A DNA stretch of 13,616 nucleotides from Desulfurococcaceae archaeon (GCA_038888155.1 JAWAJB010000025.1:1-13616), one strand, 5' to 3'. Counted from the stretch's first letter, positions 1,592 to 13,616 are shown. Numbers and translations: made by a program. The notes: generated from the sequence alone by a model not told the origin.

Positions 1592-2221
1592 CTACACGAT
1601 TCTCAATATACTATAATCATCAAAAGTAAGCTTTTCTATAACTTTGTAACTCATAGAAGTTTTGTGCAAGGGGCCATGAACAACTACTGTATGGTATTCA
1701 CCTCTTTCACCAAGAGGGTCAATACCTAAGTTTATTGCTTCCTCAACGAAATTACTAATGTTGTTTACAGTAAGTTCAACACCTAGCCATTTATCAAGGG
1801 GATTTATGCACCCAATTACAACAGACCTGATACCCGACTCAAATTCTTTGTATATTAGCTCCAACGGATCATAACCCCACAGGGGTTCAATTAGTGTTGC
1901 ACTTACTTCTTTAGCTAACTTTTCCATGTAGTTTAAGTGCTCCTCTACGTATACGTCTCCAGCAATTAATATTTCAGCGTCGAGCTTCCTAAGAACTTCA
2001 GCTGTTTCACTGAATTCTCTGTTTTTGTTAAGTTTAACCACTACAATGGGTAAACCGCTTAGAAGAAGAGTTTCTATTGATTTACCTATATTTACTATGT
2101 GGGGGCTCGGCCTTGGAAATTCGTAGATAAGCACTATTCCTACATCTACCCTACCACCGTAGCGGTAAACAGCATAGTATGAATCTTTTCCTCCTGAAAC
2201 GAAAGCTACATGTAAACCCAT
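1592..2221 (-). CDS. DUF71/COG2102 PP-loop ATP pyrophosphatase (diphthine-ammonia ligase-like), probably the B12-salvage-associated subgroup
   Basis: Motifs SGGKDS, AGDVYVEEH, PLW and GIDPLGERGEYHTVV. ATG at 2221 is preferred over TTG 2236 because GGTG lies about 9 nt upstream. Confidence 0.85.
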   Translation of the reverse strand: MGLHVAFVSGGKDSYYAVYRYGGRVDVGIVLIYEFPRPSPHIVNIGKSIETLLLSGLPIVVVKLNKNREFSETAEVLRKLDAEILIAGDVYVEEHLNYMEKLAKEVSATLIEPLWGYDPLELIYKEFESGIRSVVIGCINPLDKWLGVELTVNNISNFVEEAINLGIDPLGERGEYHTVVVHGPLHKTSMSYKVIEKLTFDDYSILRIV

Positions 2222-2339
2222 GTTGTTCTGCACCAAACTCTGTACTTTCGATGAGTTAAATGGGATACTTTAATAACATGATATGAGTATGCGAGGCGCA
2301 TTGTGTGGCGCGCTGTTGATGCTATACATAGCGCTGTGC

Positions 2340-2352
2340 TTATAAATCTTTC
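2340..2352 (-). promoter_or_regulatory. Candidate archaeal BRE/TATA promoter (GAAAGA-TTTATAA) between cbiB and the DUF71 gene
   Basis: Purine-rich hexamer directly followed by TTTATAA on the minus strand, about 120 nt upstream of ATG 2221. Confidence 0.35.
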
Positions 2353-2511
2353 AGTACATACTACATGCGATACCTCATGATACCTCCAATAGAATTACCC
2401 TTCCTTTGATATCACATACATTCAGCTTGTGATATTTGCCCATGATATTTATTATGTACATAGTACATATTCTTGCTCTGTGTAGTTTGCCATCGAAAGC
2501 CGACGCATAAC

Positions 2512-3465
2512 TTATTTTAAGAGGCATAAGTATAATGTTAGTAACACGATTATAAAGAAGGTACATACGTATATTGATAATTTCAGGGCTTTAACTATAT
2601 CTGAGTTTTTTGGAAGCGCGTATTCTCTTCCTACAGTATAAGCACCTATTTTCTCAAGCTTAACCTGTATACATCCTGATGCTGCAGATATTACTAATCT
2701 GCCATTAATGCTCTCGATGCATTTCCCCTCTTCCCTAATTATTCTCACACTGGTTCTAGGAGAACCTTTAACTAAAATACATAGAGCTATCATTAAAAGC
2801 GCAGTTAGCCTCGCAGGTACATAGTTAACAGCATCATCTACTCTCGCAGAGAACCATCCAACTTTAATGAAATCTCTCTCCTTATAGCCAAGAGCAGCGT
2901 CCATAGTATTAACAAGTCTCTGGAATAATGCACCAAGAGGTCCAAGAACTAAGTAGTACAGGAGAGGTGATGTAAATCCATCTACTACGTTCTCGAATAG
3001 AGTTTCTATAGCTGCTGAAGAAATGTGACCTTCTCCAAGCTGTGAAACATTTCTTCTAACAGCACCACTAATTGCTTCTCTCGCGCAAACAATATCGTTG
3101 TTTGCAAGACATACAGTGGTTCTATGGACATGGTCTAGAAGTAGCTTCAAGGATACTGAAACCTTTAGGATATACGTGGCAACAATAAGCCACAGCACCC
3201 TGTTCAAAATGTTAAATAGGTACAGCAACATACCATAAAAGCCTAAATGCGTAAATACAACGACAAACCATATACCAACACCTACAGCCCTCGTTTTAGG
3301 GAGCTTACGAAACATTTTCAATGCCATGAAGTAAGCAGTATGTACTGGGTGAATTCTGTACAAGATCCCGCGGTGGAAGGGATATACATAATCTAAGACT
3401 AAAGCTGTCACTAGAATAATTGAAAACTCCATAGCATTCCTTGGGTATAACCAAGTTAAATCCAT
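2512..3465 (-). CDS. cbiB: Adenosylcobinamide-phosphate synthase CbiB (CobD/CbiB family)
   Basis: Hydrophobic membrane protein with HPV, AAIETLFENVVDGFTSPL, NTMDAALGY, GWFSARVDDAVNYVPARL, and cob operon context. Confidence 0.95.
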   Translation of the reverse strand: MDLTWLYPRNAMEFSIILVTALVLDYVYPFHRGILYRIHPVHTAYFMALKMFRKLPKTRAVGVGIWFVVVFTHLGFYGMLLYLFNILNRVLWLIVATYILKVSVSLKLLLDHVHRTTVCLANNDIVCAREAISGAVRRNVSQLGEGHISSAAIETLFENVVDGFTSPLLYYLVLGPLGALFQRLVNTMDAALGYKERDFIKVGWFSARVDDAVNYVPARLTALLMIALCILVKGSPRTSVRIIREEGKCIESINGRLVISAASGCIQVKLEKIGAYTVGREYALPKNSDIVKALKLSIYVCTFFIIVLLTLYLCLLK

Positions 3466-4244
3466 GATATCACGCAGTACGAAATCAAAGATAGTAAGTA
3501 GAAGAGCTCCGAAGAAAACCCAAGAACATCCCCGTTAACAAATCCCAGAACTTTATACGCAAGAATTCTGGATAAGATTATGTTAAAAACGAGAGATATC
3601 AATGTCGTGATTAAAAATCGAAGCGTTGTTTTTGTGATGAACAGTAAAGTAAATGATATAACAAAAGATATAATTGCGCTTAGAATAACGTCGCTTTTAC
3701 TTAGGTTTTCTTTAAATGCCTTTCCGAAGCCCTCTGGAGGTTCTTTACTGGAGTAGGATAAAATGACTATATTTGTAGTAGACCATACCTCGCTAATAAC
3801 TAGCAAACACATTAGCTTAATTATCGATAACCTTTCAGTAAGAGCTATGATAAATGAGAATAAGCCTAGTGTGTATATGCAAAATGAAGCTATCGCATAA
3901 GAACCTCTATATTTATCCTTAACAACTTTGTAACCATTAGCCCCAAATCTGTGAGCTAGAATAGCTTCTGAGAAATCTATTAAACCATCTGCATGGAGAA
4001 AGCCTTGCAATATAAAGTGAAAGGCTACAACTGTGAAAGCTATAATGTACGTACTACTCAACCCTGTTAGTTGGTATATAGTCAAGGGTACTATGGTTAT
4101 TCCTCCTCTTACTAAGCCTACCAACGGTAGTAGGTACAAGTCTTTGAACATGGAGGTGTTAAGAGGTTTTCTTGGCACAGGTATTATGGTGAAGAAGGAT
4201 ACGAGGGAGAAAAACGATTTAATAATCTCCTTGAAGCTTGCTAT
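3456..4244 (-). CDS. cobS: Cobalamin(-5'-phosphate) synthase, adenosylcobinamide-GDP ribazoletransferase
   Basis: Motifs GFLHADGLIDFSE, VVKDKYRGSY and GFVNGDVLG, with multiple TM segments. The CobS-like N-terminal FFTIIP lies upstream of the ORF-track GTG at 4178. The start is placed tentatively at ATA 4244, after GAGGTG. Confidence 0.9.
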   Translation of the reverse strand: MASFKEIIKSFFSLVSFFTIIPVPRKPLNTSMFKDLYLLPLVGLVRGGITIVPLTIYQLTGLSSTYIIAFTVVAFHFILQGFLHADGLIDFSEAILAHRFGANGYKVVKDKYRGSYAIASFCIYTLGLFSFIIALTERLSIIKLMCLLVISEVWSTTNIVILSYSSKEPPEGFGKAFKENLSKSDVILSAIISFVISFTLLFITKTTLRFLITTLISLVFNIILSRILAYKVLGFVNGDVLGFSSELFYLLSLISYCVISWI

Positions 4245-5283
4245 TGTATGCCACCTCGGCTAAAGCTTTAATAAGCTCGTTATTCTCATCTACGCTCCTA
4301 AGGGCTATTCTAATGTAGTTGGATCCAAGTCCTCTGAAGCTTTTACAGCTTCTAACAGCTATACCCTTCTTCTTTAGATCCACGACAATTTTATCTCCAT
4401 CAAAACCTAGGTCTACAAGCAAAAAGTTAGTAACGCTTTCAAACACCTTAAATCCCAGTTCTTCAAGAGCCTTGGAAATCCTACTTCTTTCAGATTCTAT
4501 GTATTTCCTCGAATCCTCTATGAAATTCATCAATACACTCTTCTGCTTTAATAAATTAACAGCTACGCATTCAGCAATACTGTTGATATTCCATGGTGGT
4601 CTGAGTATATCTACCTTCTCAAGTAGTTCTTCATTTACTGAGTAGATAAAACCTATTCTAAGCCCAGGTATGGATAACCACTTCGTCAAGGACCTTACTA
4701 TAGAAAAATTCTCTGGAATGTTCTTTGCAACCTCTATGGAACAACGGGTACAGAGCTCTGCATAAACTTCATCTATAAGTACTTTTGCTTTACAATTTCC
4801 AAGCTCGTAGAATATTGCATCGACAGCTGTATAAGAGCCTGTTGGGTTGTTAGGATTCGTGATAACTATTAAGGTTTCTTTATCTTCGCAGAAGTTCTTT
4901 AGATCACTAAACTCGATATGGAACCTGTATGTAGTCCTCCTGTAGTAAACACTAATGTAGTTTATACCTAAGACTTTGGCTAGTTCTTCGTACTCTCCAT
5001 GAGAGGGCTCTACAACAACTAATTTTTTAGGTTTAGTAGCCAAGATAATTAGGTTAATAGCTTCTGCCGCACCATTCGTTGGTACAACGTTTTCAGGGAT
5101 ACAACTGTAGAAGGTGGCTATTGATTTACGTAGATCTCTGTATTGGTAATCTGGGTATCTCTCTATGACACTAAGACCTATGCAATTCGATAATATGCTC
5201 AGTAGCTCTTTTGGTGGACCCAATGGATTAGTATTAGAGCTAAAATCTATTTTAGCTTCTCGATCTCCTCCGTGGAACCGCAT
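4219..5283 (-). CDS. cobD: L-threonine-O-3-phosphate decarboxylase (PLP, class I/II aminotransferase fold)
   Basis: Motifs HGG, DFSSNTNPLG, YPD, NGAAE, NPNNPTG, DEVY, and RSLTKW-SIPGLRIG (PLP lysine). Located between cobY and cobS. Confidence 0.92.
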   Translation of the reverse strand: MRFHGGDREAKIDFSSNTNPLGPPKELLSILSNCIGLSVIERYPDYQYRDLRKSIATFYSCIPENVVPTNGAAEAINLIILATKPKKLVVVEPSHGEYEELAKVLGINYISVYYRRTTYRFHIEFSDLKNFCEDKETLIVITNPNNPTGSYTAVDAIFYELGNCKAKVLIDEVYAELCTRCSIEVAKNIPENFSIVRSLTKWLSIPGLRIGFIYSVNEELLEKVDILRPPWNINSIAECVAVNLLKQKSVLMNFIEDSRKYIESERSRISKALEELGFKVFESVTNFLLVDLGFDGDKIVVDLKKKGIAVRSCKSFRGLGSNYIRIALRSVDENNELIKALAEVAYNSKLQGDY

Positions 5284-5798
5284 ATGCTTTTAACCCACAC
5301 TATGTCTTCCATAGTGTCTATATCTCTTAACTCTGGACGTTCCTTAAAGTATACGTTAACCCAACTCCCACCAAAACTCTTAAATAATGATATACCTGAT
5401 TCCCTACATTCATTATTTCTACAAACCATTAACGTTATTACATCTGCTAATTCTCCTTGAGCTACATCTAGAAATTCCCTCAATACATCTGGGGTTAGGA
5501 GGGGTATATCCGCGGGTAATACGAGAACAGGGAACCGTGATAATCTGAGTATGTAGTTCAGGTCCTCAACATATCCTTGACCAGGGCATAAAACAACTTC
5601 AACTTTAGAATCCTTCACTTCCCCTATGAAGACTAAGTCTTCTTTAGTTAAGCAAATAAGTATTCTCCCGCTGTTGATTTCCCTAGCTACCTCTAAAGCT
5701 ACATCGATTAATCTTTTACCACATATCCTAAGGAACTGCTTTTTTACCCCTCCAAGCCTCAAACCTTTACCTCCAGCCATTATGATTACGTCGAGCAT
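5247..5798 (-). CDS. cobY: GTP:adenosylcobinamide-phosphate guanylyltransferase (MobA-like NTP transferase)
   Basis: Motifs IIMAGGKGLRLG-K, GYVEDL, PADIPLL and DIDTMED. AGGTG SD upstream. Operon position. Confidence 0.88.
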   Translation of the reverse strand: MLDVIIMAGGKGLRLGGVKKQFLRICGKRLIDVALEVAREINSGRILICLTKEDLVFIGEVKDSKVEVVLCPGQGYVEDLNYILRLSRFPVLVLPADIPLLTPDVLREFLDVAQGELADVITLMVCRNNECRESGISLFKSFGGSWVNVYFKERPELRDIDTMEDIVWVKSICGSTEEIEKLK

Positions 5799-5857
5799 CA
5801 GCTAATACACCTGTGTAAGATTACTAGGTAACGAACTTTAGCGGTAAAATTCGTAAT

Positions 5858-6976
5858 TTAAGACCTTGAATACTTATCATAGATTTTACTCAGTACACCT
5901 CCTACCAGTGCTGCCACGAGGTCATCTGTTATCGGGGGCAGAGCTCTTATCTCTTTCACCTCACCTATTTCCTTTAGTCTTTCAACCCAGTAGTAAGCTA
6001 ATAAACCTTTGAACCCGTTTATGTATTCTGCGAGAGCTTTCCCTGCTAATTCATCGACTATTATGCCTGGTGAATCCGATAGGTATTCGTCTATGTTTAT
6101 AACCGGTACAATACCTAAGGCTAAAGCTGCTTCGAGAAGTCTGAACCCTCTTACAAACATACCAACATTAGGGTCATTTATAATCATACTTAACTCATTC
6201 TCTATTTCAGCTTTGATAGTTTCATCACTCATTTGAGGTATCTTAGCCTTTGCATACACCTTCATGAGGATTTTAACTATTTCGTCTAGGTCTTTAAAGC
6301 CAAGGCTTTTTGCTATATAGCTTCCACTGGAGATATTCTTCAGCTGTTTCGATAACGCGTTCGCAAGAGCTAGAGCTGAAGCTATCCCCACAGGAGTAGC
6401 TATGCCAGCAAAATTATCAACACCTTTGGGGGCGGCAACAGCTAGAGCATCCGATGCTGTACCTATAGAAGCTCCAGATACACATGTAGGTCCACCTAGA
6501 GCCATAATAGCACCCTTTACCTCAGCTACAAACCTAAAGAGGTCTAAGAGTCCAACTAAGTCAAGAGGCTTGTCCACGATTATTGCTACATTAATTGTAC
6601 CTACGCTCCTAATAGCGTTTTTCCCTGAATTGCTTATAATGCTTATACAAGAAGGTTTATCTACGCCAAATGTAACGTAAGCCTCCGCCTTCACATTGTT
6701 ATAGATATACACGCTGTGACTATAAGTTGAAACATTCACTGCTGTAAGAAAAACAGTTGTTTTCTCGTAATCTAAACCTATCGAGTTAGTTAACTCCTTA
6801 CAATAATTATCAAGGTTCACAAAACCAAAGTTCTTAGGTACATTTCTGAAAACTATGTATCTCACGTACGAGTATGCTTTTGGACATCCAGCTGTCGATA
6901 ACGCTAAGTACTCGCCTTCAAGGTCTATAACCAGCGTTTTTTCGTCTAGGAGTATCGGTTTACTCGTAGAAGACAC
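5858..6976 (-). CDS. cbiS: Bifunctional adenosylcobinamide amidohydrolase (CbiZ, N-terminal) / alpha-ribazole phosphatase (CobZ, C-terminal), CbiS-like fusion
   Basis: N-half has FLTAV, GTINVAII, AEVK and GTASDA (CbiZ-like). C-half has DPNV, IVDELAGKALAEYING and LPPITDDLVAALVGGVLSK (CobZ-like). Abuts the cobT stop codon. Confidence 0.82.
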   Translation of the reverse strand: MSSTSKPILLDEKTLVIDLEGEYLALSTAGCPKAYSYVRYIVFRNVPKNFGFVNLDNYCKELTNSIGLDYEKTTVFLTAVNVSTYSHSVYIYNNVKAEAYVTFGVDKPSCISIISNSGKNAIRSVGTINVAIIVDKPLDLVGLLDLFRFVAEVKGAIMALGGPTCVSGASIGTASDALAVAAPKGVDNFAGIATPVGIASALALANALSKQLKNISSGSYIAKSLGFKDLDEIVKILMKVYAKAKIPQMSDETIKAEIENELSMIINDPNVGMFVRGFRLLEAALALGIVPVINIDEYLSDSPGIIVDELAGKALAEYINGFKGLLAYYWVERLKEIGEVKEIRALPPITDDLVAALVGGVLSKIYDKYSRS

Positions 6977-8059
6977 CTATGAAGCTGTAATTCGGCAGTA
7001 CTCCTGATATATATCTTTAATTAGGTCGTTAACATTTATGCCCTTCGTCATGGCTAGGAATGCTGTACCTCCTGCTCCTACCCCCTCCTTAACAAACCCT
7101 TCTTCGTAAGCTCTAAGCCCTTGGAAGGGTGCGTTGCTGAAATCTAAAACGCTATATACAAAGCCTATACCAGGCACAGCTGACCTTATAAAATCAAGTA
7201 TTTCTTTGCCTTTATCTATGAATATCCACTTAGTAGTGGCATGAATGATCTTAGACTGGTCAAAGTCTGGAGATATTTTTTTCATGAGTCCCAAGACAGC
7301 TAGCATCTGGGTACCGCCGGCAAGTATAATGATGCTACCTGCATCAATAACTCCTAGCGCGAGACCGGCGACAGATATATGTAGTGGATCTCCCACAATA
7401 TCATTCAGCATAAATGGGTCCTCTCCTCCCTTAACCCTCTGCAGAGCTTTACAAACAACCGTCTTCTTTAATTCAAGCGGATTTTTGCTCGTTGAACTGC
7501 TGACTAGATTCTCTCCTGGATATCCTAGGGCTTGAAGTATGGCCATGGCCGTTGTTGTTCCTGCGGGAATACTCTCTCCCACGAGTACGATATCTGCTAT
7601 TGTACCGAGCGTAGATCCAACGTATTTGGACTCCTTGAATAGCTTCTCTGAGGTTCCGGGAGGAAGAGCATTTTCCTTATCTATTCTTCCACCTACACAT
7701 CGGCTAGATAAGGCTATTGTCGGTATCTTCGGTGATACGTAAGAGCCTGCATCAACGACTACAAAGGGTATCCTTGAAAGTTGCAACGAAATCCTTGTTA
7801 TTATAGCTGGTGTAGGTATGCCTTCAGGTGTTGTAGGTATAGCGTCTAACGTAACCGGTTTACCGTGGTAAAGATACTCTACATCAAGAGCTGGCGTAAA
7901 TAGCGTCGCTATAGGCATTGTCCCCGCTATAGAGATGCCCGGTATAGTTGAGGTCATAGTTGAGCCAATGACATATACAGCTAAGGTTTTCCCATCTTTA
8001 AGTTTGCCTATTGATTCATTGGACTTTACAACTACGTAACCTGAACTACTCAGAGACAT
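6977..8059 (-). CDS. cobT: Archaeal-type nicotinate-mononucleotide:base phosphoribosyltransferase (UPF0284/CobT)
   Basis: Motifs IPGISIAG, PTPAIIT, GESIPAGTTTA, LAGGTQM and YEEGFVKEGVGAGG. GAGG SD upstream. First gene of the operon. Confidence 0.93.
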   Translation of the reverse strand: MSLSSSGYVVVKSNESIGKLKDGKTLAVYVIGSTMTSTIPGISIAGTMPIATLFTPALDVEYLYHGKPVTLDAIPTTPEGIPTPAIITRISLQLSRIPFVVVDAGSYVSPKIPTIALSSRCVGGRIDKENALPPGTSEKLFKESKYVGSTLGTIADIVLVGESIPAGTTTAMAILQALGYPGENLVSSSTSKNPLELKKTVVCKALQRVKGGEDPFMLNDIVGDPLHISVAGLALGVIDAGSIIILAGGTQMLAVLGLMKKISPDFDQSKIIHATTKWIFIDKGKEILDFIRSAVPGIGFVYSVLDFSNAPFQGLRAYEEGFVKEGVGAGGTAFLAMTKGINVNDLIKDIYQEYCRITAS

Positions 8060-9168
8060 AGAATCGCCTCAAGATGTCCCACTACAGTTTAAACATACGT
8101 TTGATAACTTAAACAATTCGAACTTTAAAACTATAAAACTAGTTCTATCCTCTTTACCCTTGAACAACCAAAGCACTTTTGGTAGTGTACCTGTAGCGTG
8201 AGCTCAATGCTTTATCTGGTTCTTAGCTATATTTTCACTAAGAAACCTTTAGCTTCTTGTGATACTATAAGACGTTTTGTTCTCAAAGGCCGTAGTTTTT
8301 TCTTGGTTCTCAATTAATGATCTTGGTGTTTTAATCAAGCCCCTTAGGTTTAAACCTGTACCTACTCCACTATATTTACGTCCAGAATATCGCCAGTACC
8401 GCGAAAACCCATGTTGCAGATCCAAAAGTGCAAAACTTTAATCCGGCTACATCAACTTCCACTAGTTTAACCTCTTAATTTAGCAATAAATAAATTCAAT
8501 TCACTAAACACACCATCCGCCAATAAACTAGCCTATTTTTTCAACACCAGGAAGAATTTCTAGCTACTGCTACTATGTTTGAGACCAACATTAGCAGCAC
8601 CTGAACCCTAGCGTAAATGGTCTTTACGCCTTACCCCTTGACCTATTTTGAGCCCAACACAGCTTTTAGCACTCAAAGTAATATAGACACCGGGATCAAG
8701 AGATATAGTGATTTTACGATATGCAAGTTCAAAATACTTAAACATGATAACTAGGCACAGCACTATTGTAGAGTAAAGAGAACGTGTAAAGTTGAAATGC
8801 TACATATCGTGCATTTAACGACTAACTTCACAAGTTATCTTAGGTTTACGGTTAATTTTGTGAACAGTTCACTGGTCCAAGGCTATTAGTTGTATAGCAT
8901 AGCTGTATTAGGTGTCACACTGTGCTATAATGCTTCAATGCTTATTAGCTTTTATATGTTCCATAGCATTCGTATCTTCTTATTTTTCATGGAATGCCCC
9001 TTAAAATTAAGCTCTTGAACTTCGTCCTTAAAACTAGTCTTGCATCGACATTATAGAACGAGGCCTTAGGTCCTTTGCACTACTAGAGCGGTATTTGGTG
9101 TTCATGTAATATACTACTTTGTAGTTATACAATTGTAAATAGTTATTAGATAGTTATAATTCATAAAT

Positions 9169-9687
9169 TTAGTAGCTCGTTTCTGTTAAAAACGCTTGGT
9201 ATTGTAGAACGAAAACGAGGTCTGATAATCTATTCAATAGAATACCTATGTTTTTGCACCATAATTCTGTTTCATTGAAGCAATGCCAAAACCATCTTTC
9301 AGCTCTCCTAACAATAGCTCTAACAATAGCAATTACAGCAACACCTCCGTATCTTGAGCTCTTGATATAACTGGGGATGAGAGTTTTCGGTTTAGGCTTT
9401 TCGTCGATCTTCTTCTCGATCTCTACTATAACGCTTTCATCAGGACACCAATTATTCTGAAGAGACGTTGTGATCTTTGAAATTAACCCATATACATATT
9501 CAAGTTCTTTAGCTACAGATTCGCTAGAATACTTCTCGATAGCTAGACCCGTAAAAGTTAGTGCTTCATCTAGGGAGCCTATGAAATGTATACATGGATG
9601 GTATTTGGGAAACTTAATAGCGTCAATAACGGTGATTCCATTATCTCCTTGTCGAGTATAAACAGTCGTGATAGCAGGTGTATTCAT
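9169..9687 (-). CDS. pduO: PduO-type ATP:cob(I)alamin adenosyltransferase
   Basis: Motifs VYTRQGDNGIT, GSLDEAL, RAIVRRAER and LNRLSDLVF. GAGGT SD upstream. Confidence 0.92.
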   Translation of the reverse strand: MNTPAITTVYTRQGDNGITVIDAIKFPKYHPCIHFIGSLDEALTFTGLAIEKYSSESVAKELEYVYGLISKITTSLQNNWCPDESVIVEIEKKIDEKPKPKTLIPSYIKSSRYGGVAVIAIVRAIVRRAERWFWHCFNETELWCKNIGILLNRLSDLVFVLQYQAFLTETSY

Positions 9688-10019
9688 CGATTTTAACCTC
9701 AGACTTCAAATTAAAAGTAGTCAACCATGGTAAATAAACACGCAAAAGCTGTAGCACGTTTCATTAGCATTAAATGGTTTCTTGCACATTCTCCAGGTCT
9801 AAAGCCCTGAGTACAGAAATATAACATCCGCTTCCCTCTTCTGCAATGTCATTGTAATTTCATGAATAGTCGCCTTGGTAAGTCTTGCTATGATGTTTTG
9901 CAGCGCTTACGTGCTATGATACGAGTGTAACGTGATGTCAAGCTTTGTTAAGCTATTATCAGAGATCATGGTTATAACTTATATGAGTAGTTATGGCATA
10001 GGTAAATTTGAATTGAAGA

Positions 10020-10802
10020 ATGTTGATGTGTATGCGAGTACGTATTCCATGCTATATATACGCAGATTTATTATTCAAAAAACTAGTAAAAGTTGTTAGC
10101 ATACATGAGTGTGATTGTATAGCTTTAAGCGGAGGTATAGATACATCAGTTATTCTATTGGCGTCTTTAGAAGCCGGGTTAAAACCTAGGGGTTACACCG
10201 CTATGTATAGCCATGGTTTACCCAAAGATCTGATGTACGTTAATTACATATCCAAAGTATTCAACATTGATGTGGAGCTTGTTCAAGTATCCAATGAAGC
10301 TATTGAAGATCTAAAAAACAATGTCATTGAATGTATCGGCATAGATAAGGTTAATTCTCATAAGAATGGGGGTTGTGTAGAGATTAGAAATGATATAGTA
10401 TTTTATGCAACACTTAAGAAGGCCAAAGATGATGGATGTAGATGTGTTCTTGTCGGTAGTGGTGGCGACGAACTATTCGCAGGCTACAGCTTTATGCTTA
10501 ATTTAATTAGCGAAGACCTTGAAGAAACCATCCGTAGGCTCGCTCGAGGCAGGTATGCAGAGCTTGAAATAGCTAAATGCCTGGGTGTAAAGGTTGTTGC
10601 ACCCTTTCTAAATGATGTCATTATAGAACTTGCTGAGGAAATTCCAGTAGAATGCATAAGGTCGGAGAAAATGCTAGGAAAAGAAATTCTTAGAGAAATT
10701 TTAAACAAAAAAGGTCTTTACCTCATTAGCGAAAGAGCTAAAACCCCCGCTGAAAGCGGTGCTGGAACTATTACCATATGTAAATCCATATACGATGAGT
10801 AA
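10020..10802 (+). CDS. Stand-alone asparagine-synthase C-terminal (PP-loop synthetase) domain protein, no glutaminase domain
   Basis: Motifs ALSGGIDTS, GSGGDELFAGY, APFL, GKEILRE and RAKTP. At 260 aa it has no N-terminal Ntn domain. The exact start among ATG 10020/10026/10032 is uncertain. Confidence 0.85.
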   Translation: MLMCMRVRIPCYIYADLLFKKLVKVVSIHECDCIALSGGIDTSVILLASLEAGLKPRGYTAMYSHGLPKDLMYVNYISKVFNIDVELVQVSNEAIEDLKNNVIECIGIDKVNSHKNGGCVEIRNDIVFYATLKKAKDDGCRCVLVGSGGDELFAGYSFMLNLISEDLEETIRRLARGRYAELEIAKCLGVKVVAPFLNDVIIELAEEIPVECIRSEKMLGKEILREILNKKGLYLISERAKTPAESGAGTITICKSIYDE

Positions 10803-11751: not shown

Positions 11752-12405
11752 CTAAGCATTGTTCACCTTACTAGATGCTGAACTACTAAGTCTCCGTAAG
11801 AGTGCGTAAGAGGATATTACCGTTAATCGCGAGAGTGGTATAGCTAAGCAGAGCTTTGCGATATCCCATGGTATAAAGGGCATTACTCCGGTTACTGTAG
11901 CCGTTATAATTGCCTGTAAAAAGTTAATACCACCCACGAACACGTACCATGCGGTAAGCCATGAAGCTCCCAAGGCGTATATGATCATTAATTGAGCTAA
12001 GCCTGCGATCAGTCCTCGCTTAGCTGATAACGTTCCTTTCGGTACTAGTCTACCAGCTACTAATGTTCCTGCAATAAAACCGATAAGGTACCCAAATGTC
12101 GGTGACAGCACGTACGCAAGGCCTCCACCATAAGCAAAGACCGGGGCTCCTATCAAACCTAGTAGAACATACGTGGCCACGTATCTCCACGCCTGTGCAC
12201 CATTTGTGAATAACAAGCAGTGAAGAACCATTGTCTGAAGAGTAAAGGGTACAGGAGTGAATGGTGCTGTTATCTTGATCCGAGCACCCAAGGAAAGAGT
12301 CAATACACTTATAGCAACACGTAATAGCTCCATAACGATAAACCTCTGAGAACTACGGCTTTTCGCGATAACCACGGGGACTACTAATTGCTTTCTTCTC
12401 CGCAC
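11752..12405 (-). CDS. bioY: Biotin transporter S-component BioY
   Basis: Motifs PFTPVPFTLQT, GLIGAPVFA, PTFGYLIGF and PFIPWDIAK. Hydrophobic. GGTGG SD before GTG. Confidence 0.92.
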   Translation of the reverse strand: MRRRKQLVVPVVIAKSRSSQRFIVMELLRVAISVLTLSLGARIKITAPFTPVPFTLQTMVLHCLLFTNGAQAWRYVATYVLLGLIGAPVFAYGGGLAYVLSPTFGYLIGFIAGTLVAGRLVPKGTLSAKRGLIAGLAQLMIIYALGASWLTAWYVFVGGINFLQAIITATVTGVMPFIPWDIAKLCLAIPLSRLTVISSYALLRRLSSSASSKVNNA

Positions 12406-12973: not shown

Positions 12974-13616
12974 TCATACATCTATGTAGTAAAAGACTTC
13001 AGCAGGGGTCGGATAAGACATTACTTTTCTTGATTCTTCTCTCTTCAGCTCAATATAAGTCTCCAATAGTTCATCTACGAATACTGGTTTAAGCCACTCA
13101 TTATCGCATTCAAGTTCATCTAGTGCTTCATCAAGGCTTCGTGGCAGTTCCCGTATACCTAGCTCTCTTCTCCTACTTTTTGACGTTTTGTAAACGTTCT
13201 CTTCTATGGGGTCTCCTGGGTCTATTTTCTTTTTAAGCCCGTCTAACCCCGCTAGTACAATTGCCGAGGTAGCCAAGTAGGGGTTTGCGCTGGGGTCGGG
13301 CGGTCTGTACTCTATTCTCATAGAGTTTTCGGTTACAGCGTAACCCGGTATTCTTACAGCTGCACTCCTATTACCTATACCCCACACCAGGTACACTGGT
13401 GCCTCGTAACCTGGCACGAGTCTCTTGTAGCTATTAACGGTAGGGTTGGTGAACGCTGCCAGTGCTCTGGCGTGTTCGAGTAAACCACCAATAAAGTACC
13501 TTGCTTCTTGACTTAAACGGTATCTTTCATTTGGATCGTAAAAAGATGTTTCTTTTGCCACGCCATAGACTTACATGCATGTGCGATCCACTACCGTTAT
13601 CTCCGTATATGGGCTT
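12974..13616 (-). CDS. glnA: Glutamine synthetase type I, C-terminal part (5' truncated by window), with a +1 frameshift at 13540-13544
   Basis: [18 protein letters not shown] is in one frame (from 13616). [22 protein letters not shown] and [12 protein letters not shown] are in the next frame. The ORF-track start at 13561 is an artefact of the shift. Confidence 0.93.

Follow-up and report, generated by a model that had tools for sequence, protein, structure and literature searches.

Which enzymes supply the amide side chains of the corrin ring in archaea whose B12 genes include neither CbiA nor CbiP? The question is raised by a 13,616-nt stretch of DNA from a Desulfurococcaceae archaeon (GCA_038888155.1, JAWAJB010000025.1; hereafter "the window"), in which genes for cobamide salvage are bracketed by two PP-loop proteins, one of the DUF71-B12 subgroup and the other a stand-alone asparagine synthetase-like (AsnS-like) domain. 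An earlier note, made from the sequence of the window, had proposed that the two proteins amidate corrinoids. We now consider it on balance probable that the pair performs ammonia-dependent, adenylate-forming amidation of corrin side chains, replacing CbiA and CbiP. A broader proposal is put forward more tentatively, as possible and somewhat short of probable: the two proteins may act as the cobyrinic acid a,c-diamide synthase and the cobyric acid synthase that are missing from many Thermoproteota. All six amidations would then follow a glutaminase-free, ammonia-dependent, AMP-forming route, by which Ignisphaera-like species could make B12 fully de novo without CbiA and CbiP and which salvagers would retain for completing or repairing the corrinoids that they import.

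The window is the entire contig C25 of a 134-contig, 2.42 Mb bin (G000; 97% complete, 6.4% contaminated); throughout, handles beginning with G, C and L denote genomes, contigs and loci, and f and g denote coded families and genera. We annotated it by open reading frame (ORF) listing, Pfam and NCBIfam scans, and Rfam and tRNA scans, the last two of which gave no match in the window. The two proteins in question are encoded at:

1592-2236, minus strand: DUF71-B12 subgroup PP-loop ATP pyrophosphatase of the TTX_0299 family (PF01902, 99.8 bits; NF052347, 255 bits)
10020-10802, plus strand: stand-alone AsnS-like PP-loop synthetase domain of 260 aa, divergent from pduO (PF00733, 63 bits)

The AsnS-like protein has the PP-loop, AsnB-type fold and C-terminal lysine of its superfamily, and exceeds the PF00733 cut-off of 21 bits threefold. 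Its motifs are SGGIDTS, GSGGDELFAGY and a C-terminal K241; among orthologues, S37, G39, D41, D150, E151 and K241 are invariant, and G38 and T42 nearly so. An AlphaFold (AF2) model with a pLDDT of 87 has its top fold matches in the synthetase domains of AsnB, beta-lactam synthetase and carbapenam synthetase (TM 0.71-0.75; 0.74 for 1ct9). The profile alignment covers only residues 225-461 of E. coli AsnB, and within it residues are retained at the positions of AsnB D351/E352 and K449. The full-length model TIGR01536 scores 55 bits, below its cut-off of 267, and Pfam gives no match to a glutaminase (GATase) domain in the 260-aa protein, so that the N-terminal class-II domain of AsnB is missing. 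In records from Ignisphaera, Fervidicoccus, Pyrodictiaceae and Thermofilum, this family of about 256 aa is labeled only "asparagine synthase-related".

Seven invariant or nearly invariant cysteines in the close orthologues had prompted the idea of an Fe-S sulfur-transferase. We dropped this idea because distant homologues from the same operon context have either both of two CxC motifs or neither, and because the fold fits AsnB far better than TtuA or LarE; the cysteines more likely form a structural metal site or disulfides. In the distant proteins, one CxC motif precedes the PP-loop and the other precedes GDGGDE, and their joint occurrence suggests a four-Cys structural site. Distant forms of 304-351 aa (L166-L177, L015, L016, L019) also carry a zinc-ribbon-like C-terminal tail, CPxCG…CxFCGA, which is absent from the 256-aa forms.

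The DUF71 protein is a member of the DUF71-B12 subgroup, which, according to the available text of de Crecy-Lagard et al. (2012, Biol Direct 7:32, PMC3541065), is defined by a motif replacing the EGGE/DxE of Dph6. It matches PF01902, has an intact PP-loop (SGGKDS) and a second motif of the ENGEF/YH type (DPLGERGEYHT), and is encoded near cbiB as an extra copy besides Dph6. Among 25 orthologues, S14, G15, G16 and K17 are invariant and D18 and S19 nearly so, and E177, G179, E180, Y181 and H182 of the second motif are invariant as well. Its score for NF052347 ("TTX_0299 family putative ATP pyrophosphatase") reaches the cut-off of 250 bits, as does that of its orthologue in G058 (255.6 bits). It is not a Dph6: TIGR03679 gives 82.4 bits against a cut-off of 197.3, the motif reads ERGEYH instead of EGGE/DxE, and a separate true Dph6 with the motif EGGEAE lies elsewhere in the bin (G000:C2:16436-17095). 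Pfam and NCBIfam scans of the DUF71 protein found no glutaminase domain either, in agreement with the earlier description of both proteins as glutaminase-less, and neither protein matches PF01656 or PF07685, the CbiA-type P-loop ATPase and GATase_3 models. The earlier note had also called the two ligases unrelated; both are in fact PP-loop ATPases, of different families. A search for longer fused relatives of either protein found none, which is weak evidence.

Are the two genes linked outside the window? We sampled 301 genomes from the class, 105 of which contain an AsnS-like match at E <= 1e-20, and aligned the window proteins to the 50 best AsnS-like loci (48 genomes) with as much as 10 kb of flanking sequence in either direction. 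In 36 of these 50 loci, DUF71-B12 is directly adjacent on the same strand, upstream of the AsnS-like gene in 25 and downstream in 11. The aligned stretches are separated by 3 to 274 nt, and the predicted ORFs frequently abut or overlap by one to a few nucleotides. Two of the 36 adjacent pairs are decayed copies (L142, L165). In the second of these, from G068, both genes are broken (three stops in DUF71, a truncated AsnS-like gene) beside an intact cbiB, which we read as joint decay and count in favor of the amidation reading. G022 (L129) has two copies of the pair, one intact and the other degraded, the latter beside its cob operon.

Fourteen of the 50 loci lack an adjacent DUF71. Six of them end about 0.8 kb or less from the AsnS-like gene, so the neighbor may be cut off, and the remaining eight include the two nearest relatives of the window, G200 (80% identity) and G239 (76%), where the two genes lie 34 kb apart on one contig and on separate contigs, respectively. 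Because most relatives have the pair as neighbors, the window's layout, with the two genes at opposite ends, is by this comparison derived.

Linkage to cob genes recurs as well, as the earlier note had expected, and it is strong: at least four window-type cob genes lie within 10 kb in 22 of the 50 loci, and at least one in 27. A further 56 AsnS-like matches are more distant, with 29-38% identity and ORFs of 320-380 aa; cbiB is no more than 500 bp away in 18 of them and DUF71 in nine, and 24 have neither gene within 10 kb on the same contig, many such contigs being short. Six of 52 closer matches are also within 500 bp of cbiB. Five loci (L166-169, L177) run through cobT, cbiZ-cobZ, cobD and cbiB to the AsnS-like gene, with cobY in four of the five and cobS in four. 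At L176, DUF71 comes first, followed by cobT through cbiB and, about 0.7 kb beyond, the AsnS-like gene, which reproduces the window's bracketing on one strand. Eight pair loci without a cob gene within 10 kb were scanned: in five the neighbor is a BtuF-like binding protein (at L146 together with FecCD and an ABC ATPase) or an ECF S-component and ATPase, and the other three have no telling neighbors. A separate search of genome contigs with the AsnS-like alignment returned 75 loci dominated by generic AsnB patterns, about five of them informative; 66 further loci (L021-L086, nearly all bacterial) have no DUF71 or cob genes nearby. A complex prediction for the two proteins, run as alignments, scored 0.01 against a mark of 0.32 and bears on neither side.

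Most of these cob operons contain, between cbiB and DUF71, a gene of about 230 aa without a Pfam match: L121:5997-6686 (G058), L178:5557-6204 (G200), L179, L120, L123, L126, L130, L128, L124, L131 and L133; in L151 and L150 it is located elsewhere. Its N-terminus resembles the ADP-dependent L-serine kinase SerK (42 bits) and SbnI (40 bits), far under the cut-offs. The window does not have it between 2237 and 2511, and the bin holds only a distant relative, on contig C5. This SerK/SbnI-like protein is a candidate for the L-threonine kinase that would feed CobD and that is missing in archaea; archaeal B12 pathways, in the available text of PMC8305020, list a gap at EC 2.7.1.177.

We then asked how the pair is distributed relative to CobQ/CbiP. 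Among the 301 genomes, CbiB is found in 159, full-length CobQ (E <= 1e-74) in 57 and DUF71-B12 (E < 1e-40) in 79. None of the 57 CobQ genomes has DUF71-B12, and one has a weak AsnS-like match. Conversely, 94 of the 106 genomes with CbiB and without CobQ carry one or both genes of the pair, and 67 carry both; in the 53 genomes with both CbiB and CobQ, the pair is absent save for that one weak match. The anti-correlation with cbiP and cbiA suggested in the earlier note therefore holds across the sample, and it holds among salvagers too. Replacement of CbiA and CbiP is favored because the only unassigned enzymes in the cob operon are two predicted carboxylate-adenylating amidoligases, which are found in those 94 genomes and in essentially no CobQ genome.

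An explanation by lifestyle, in which CobQ marks de novo synthesis and its absence marks salvage, was rejected because some salvagers keep CobQ and some ring producers carry the pair. It had at first been suggested by five complete pair-bearing genomes with one or two tetrapyrrole methylases and no CbiA, and by the Sulfolobaceae-like family f4, in which CbiZ was found in only one of five genomes. Outside f4, CbiZ was found in nine of 11 CobQ genomes tested. Also outside f4, eight of the ten CobQ genomes counted have zero or one tetrapyrrole methylase (G259, G168, G281, G249, G009, G012, G029, G001). These eight have no pair, and all except G001 have CbiZ; four of them, in f7 and f10 (G259, G168, G281, G249), have no CbiA, and CobB/CbiA is found in G001, G009 and G029. 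By gene content, these low-methylase genomes are salvagers that keep CobQ and have no ring pathway. They appear to take up early, incompletely amidated corrinoids, of which we know of no description for archaea. Amidation by the pair in salvagers would match this retention of CobQ, which has no other obvious reason. Within a single genus, g71, the exchange can be seen between two genomes that each have CbiB, CbiZ and one methylase: G210 carries the pair without CobQ, and G259 carries CobQ without the pair.

Some genomes also encode short proteins that match only the N-terminal ATPase part of the CobQ model (positions 1-200), with no glutaminase part. One of these, G197:C37:15904-16530, lies 5.5 kb from an AsnS-like/DUF71 pair, and similar ORFs of about 300 aa are found in G287, G120, G247, G168 and G281.

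Does any genome with the pair make the corrin ring itself? A methylase count over the 301 genomes identified three pair-bearing members of genus g36, G058, G107 and G169, with six to seven copies. The cluster in G058 comprises cbiM with an ABC ATPase, sirC-like, hemD, cobA, hemC, hemL, hemB, hemA, cbiG, cbiX-cbiC, cbiD, cbiT-like and four further corrin methylases, with five TP_methylase genes in all. G107 has the same ring cluster at 94-100% identity, and CbiD was found in G169. A search for CobQ at E <= 1e-30 gave no match in these three genomes, and no CobB/CbiA match in them exceeds 25 bits. Their sole GATase_3 matches score at most 40 bits, in ORFs of 201-233 aa, and matches of the same kind occur in controls, in which true CobQ and CobB score 113-120 bits. 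The ring pathway in these genomes ends at cobyrinic acid and the loop pathway starts from cobyric acid; therefore, six amidations lack an assigned enzyme. In two of the three genomes the pair lies beside cbiB, and the operon of G058 reads cobY, cobD, cobS, cbiB, the 230-aa ORF, DUF71 and the AsnS-like gene. Together with linkage and complementarity, these three genomes favor the branch of the earlier amidation idea in which the pair would replace CbiA and CbiP.

We had considered genus g58, with three to five methylases, as a second producer lineage, and dropped it on finding no CbiD in four of four genomes. The corrin cluster of G058 (L182/L183, G058:C2:288000-320000) is flanked by CRISPR-Cas genes, with Csx1 on one side and Csa1, Cas1, Cas2, Cas4, Cas6 and Cas3 on the other.

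In the mechanism that we propose, DUF71-B12 and the AsnS-like protein would act jointly, either as two separate enzymes or as one complex. With ATP, and with release of PPi, each would adenylate carboxylates on the acetate or propionate side chains of a corrinoid, and free ammonia would then displace AMP to form the amide. The pair would thereby supply the amidations performed elsewhere by CbiA (a, c) and by CbiP/CobQ (b, d, e, g). De novo producers in the Ignisphaera-like genus would use it to turn cobyrinic acid into cobyric acid; in pure salvagers, such as the organism of the window, it would complete or re-amidate imported under-amidated corrinoids before CbiB, CobY, CobS and CobT rebuild the nucleotide loop. 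The analysis itself establishes what the genes are, their conserved pairing and place in cob operons, their complementarity with CobQ across genomes and the hole in the pathway of ring-synthesizing genomes; the substrate, the use of NH3, the positions served by each enzyme and any binding between the two are inferred.

Several observations weigh against this proposal. Of the 106 genomes with CbiB and without CobQ, 12 lack both genes and 27 lack one of them at the thresholds used; either CbiB-based salvage can proceed without the pair, or divergent copies escaped detection. In bacteria, DUF71-B12 is strictly anti-correlated with CbiZ (PMC3541065, available text), which an amidation model does not predict. 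The 301 genomes belong to one class and are non-independent samples, with about four to five independent switches between CobQ and the pair (f4, f7, f10, f14-16, f18). G058, G107 and G169 are so closely related that they count as roughly one evolutionary case, and the absences of CbiA and CbiP rest on hidden Markov model (HMM) searches of assemblies that are 94-99% complete. Finally, the position of AsnB E348 is Ser or Asp in the AsnS-like orthologues, and catalytic details therefore differ.

Some PP-loop enzymes can adenylate amide or ureido oxygens, a point in favor of a quite different role, in which the two proteins act on complete cobamides. As cautiously proposed for DUF71-B12 in 2012 (PMC3541065, available text), they might fill the place of bacterial CbiZ, an amidohydrolase, in salvaging cobamides such as pseudo-B12. 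In this scheme of cobamide remodeling, DUF71-B12 and its partner would open or remove the nucleotide loop, perhaps by using ATP to activate the amide of the f side chain, and CbiB would then build the loop anew. The bacterial anti-correlation with CbiZ speaks for this, as does the finding that 75 of 102 DUF71-B12 genes adjoin B12 transporter genes (same source), and the pair lies beside genes for BtuF-like binding proteins or ECF transporters here too. We nevertheless consider it quite unlikely. The pair occurs together with cbiZ-cobZ in the window and in 20 of the 50 loci, its genomic complement is CobQ and not CbiZ, and it is present in ring-synthesizing genomes that have no CbiA or CbiP. 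Moreover, two adenylating ligases for one hydrolysis are unparsimonious, an objection already made by a reviewer in the available text of the same paper.

Proximity to cbiB allows another role, in which one of the proteins, or both, would activate adenosylcobyric acid as an adenylate at its free f-propionate and let the membrane-bound CbiB attach aminopropanol phosphate. As far as is known, cobyric acid alone among the canonical salvage intermediates has a free carboxylate. The AsnS-like gene is close to cbiB in the 18 distant and six closer matches described above; likewise, 18 of 102 DUF71-B12 genes adjoin cbiB (PMC3541065, available text). This adjacency, however, follows from cbiB being the last cob gene of the operon, and a helper of CbiB is hard to reconcile with the 53 genomes in which CbiB and CobQ do without the pair, one weak match aside. 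An intact cbiB is found in G063, which carries neither gene, and in G068, whose pair has decayed. The complementarity with CobQ is also left unexplained, and we regard this role as improbable. An assignment to another part of B12 metabolism (provision of the aminopropanol-phosphate linker, for instance, or chemistry of the lower ligand), or to a non-corrinoid substrate merely co-regulated with the cob operon, is unlikely as well. About a third of the pairs lie away from cob genes, and the gap at EC 2.7.1.177 is still listed for archaea (PMC8305020, available text), both of which would fit such an assignment. For the kinase gap, the SerK/SbnI-like gene found in these same cob operons is the stronger candidate, and the CobQ complementarity and the hole at CbiA and CbiP point to amidation. 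PP-loop enzymes, in addition, are known to adenylate rather than to phosphorylate.

The rest of the window agrees with the earlier account of its genes. Everything listed there (pduO, cbiZ, cobD, cbiB, cobY, cobT, cobZ, cobS) is present, with the correction that cbiZ and cobZ form one fused gene:

2512-3465, minus strand: cbiB, adenosylcobinamide-phosphate synthase (PF03186, 226 bits; NF002281, 304 bits, above cut-off)
3456-4178, minus strand: cobS, cobalamin-5'-phosphate synthase (PF02654, 105 bits)
4219-5283, minus strand: cobD-type L-threonine-phosphate decarboxylase of the class I/II aminotransferase fold (PF00155, 143 bits; best NCBIfam match TIGR01140, 232 bits, under the cut-off of 290)
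5247-5798, minus strand: cobY-like nucleotidyltransferase (PF12804, 64.6 bits; NF045495, 63 bits, under cut-off; operon position conserved in relatives)
5858-6976, minus strand: cbiZ-cobZ fusion, CbiS-like, cobinamide amidohydrolase plus alpha-ribazole phosphatase (PF01955, 114 bits, residues 19-207; TIGR03161, 89.5 bits, residues 230-367)
6977-8059, minus strand: archaeal cobT, NaMN-dependent phosphoribosyltransferase (TIGR00303, 315.8 bits, cut-off 240)
8066-9163, no strand: unique 1.1 kb spacer without an ORF, a likely rearrangement junction
9169-9687, minus strand: pduO-type corrinoid adenosyltransferase (PF01923, 81.9 bits)
3-482, 11752-12405 and 12974-13561: contig-end genes, respectively the 3' end of nrdD (anaerobic ribonucleotide reductase), a BioY biotin transporter and the 3' part of a type I glutamine synthetase (glnA)

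The CbiS model NF038002 scores 196.7 bits on the cbiZ-cobZ fusion (cut-off 250), and the CbiZ and CobZ domains are both there. The positions of DUF71 beside cbiB and of the AsnS-like gene divergent from pduO are as first described. Neither cbiA nor cbiP is found in the window, as the note had said, nor anywhere in the 2.42 Mb bin, which contains a single tetrapyrrole methylase gene. The contig-end genes do not recur near the pair in relatives, with the exception of nrdD at three loci.

Even when read from stop to stop, the spacer at 8066-9163 contains no ORF of at least 65 aa; it matches nothing in the Rfam and tRNA scans, has no repeats and is unique in the bin. DNA similarity between the window and G200 covers the DUF71 gene and 2551-8065, ends just past cobT and returns at 9164, at pduO; similarity to G239 ends at 8044. 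The spacer is thus probably the junction of a rearrangement that brought pduO and the AsnS-like gene beside cobT, or it may be an assembly join. The contig itself may be mis-binned. Its cob operon has 82-84% protein identity to family f7, genus g36, as against the bin's own f1 and g1, and its GC content is 0.397 compared with 0.438 for the bin, whose contigs range from 0.35 to 0.53. The bin measures 2.42 Mb compared with 0.9-1.5 Mb for other genomes of its coded genus, of which only one in 15 has CbiB. The bin is probably a mixture, and statements about the window's own genome therefore hold for the bin only.

To our knowledge, the corrin amidation steps have so far been assigned only to CbiA/CobB and CbiP/CobQ. 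If our proposal is correct, B12 biosynthesis would gain two enzyme families through an unrelated PP-loop route, and the DUF71-B12 subgroup, unassigned since 2012, would be given a function. Producers and salvagers are called in genomes and metagenomes with cbiA and cbiP as markers, and Ignisphaera-like producers would currently be scored as non-producers. The proposal would further suggest that many hyperthermophilic archaea take up incompletely amidated corrinoids, which bears on cofactor exchange in hot springs, and thermostable, ammonia-dependent corrinoid "amidases-in-reverse" could serve in making B12 analogues. What is new here is the proposed non-orthologous route for known reactions; the association of DUF71-B12 with B12 has itself been known since 2012 (PMC3541065, available text).

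How does the pair compare with known systems? The earlier note knew of no characterized pairing of this kind. That stands for the AsnS-like partner: a full-text literature search, with subscription journals outside its scope, found no paper that links an AsnS-like protein to cobamide genes or describes a two-gene module, and no report of DUF71-B12/CbiP complementarity or of a ring pathway without CbiA and CbiP in these archaea. It does not stand for DUF71-B12, for which a link to salvage and fusions of AsnB with DUF71 were published in 2012. The DUF71-B12 proteins of that paper share with the window's protein the PP-loop, the E-x-G-E-Y-H motif, a second copy beside Dph6, and clustering with cbiB and B12 transporters; they differ in the CbiZ-like role proposed for them, and the available text describes no stand-alone AsnS-like partner or complementarity with CbiP (PMC3541065). 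The AsnB-DUF71 fusions, recorded in some Methanosarcinales and Nanohaloarchaea, similarly couple an AsnS-type PP-loop domain to DUF71, but they include the glutaminase domain and were read as Dph6 (PMC3541065, available text).

With Dph6 diphthine-ammonia ligase, the window's DUF71 protein shares PF01902, and Dph6 amidates a carboxylate with NH3 via an adenylate; the two differ in their catalytic motif and TIGR03679 score, and the bin has its own Dph6. The AsnS-like protein shares its fold, PP-loop, GxGxDE-FxGY motif and C-terminal lysine region with the C-terminal domain of AsnB and with beta-lactam and carbapenam synthetases. Unlike AsnB, it lacks the N-terminal Ntn glutaminase, measures about 256 aa and has Ser or Asp in place of E348, and its context is B12 and not amino-acid or beta-lactam metabolism. 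CbiA and CbiP are MinD-type ATPases with a fused triad glutaminase that form ADP and an acyl phosphate, whereas the pair, with an unrelated fold and mechanism, has PP-loops, no glutaminase and AMP and PPi as expected products. The likeness to CbiA/CobB and CbiP/CobQ lies in the proposed ATP-dependent amidation of corrin carboxylates, in the use of two proteins, in genes beside cbiB and in a mutually exclusive distribution, and what we claim is accordingly a functional analogy and not membership of their families.

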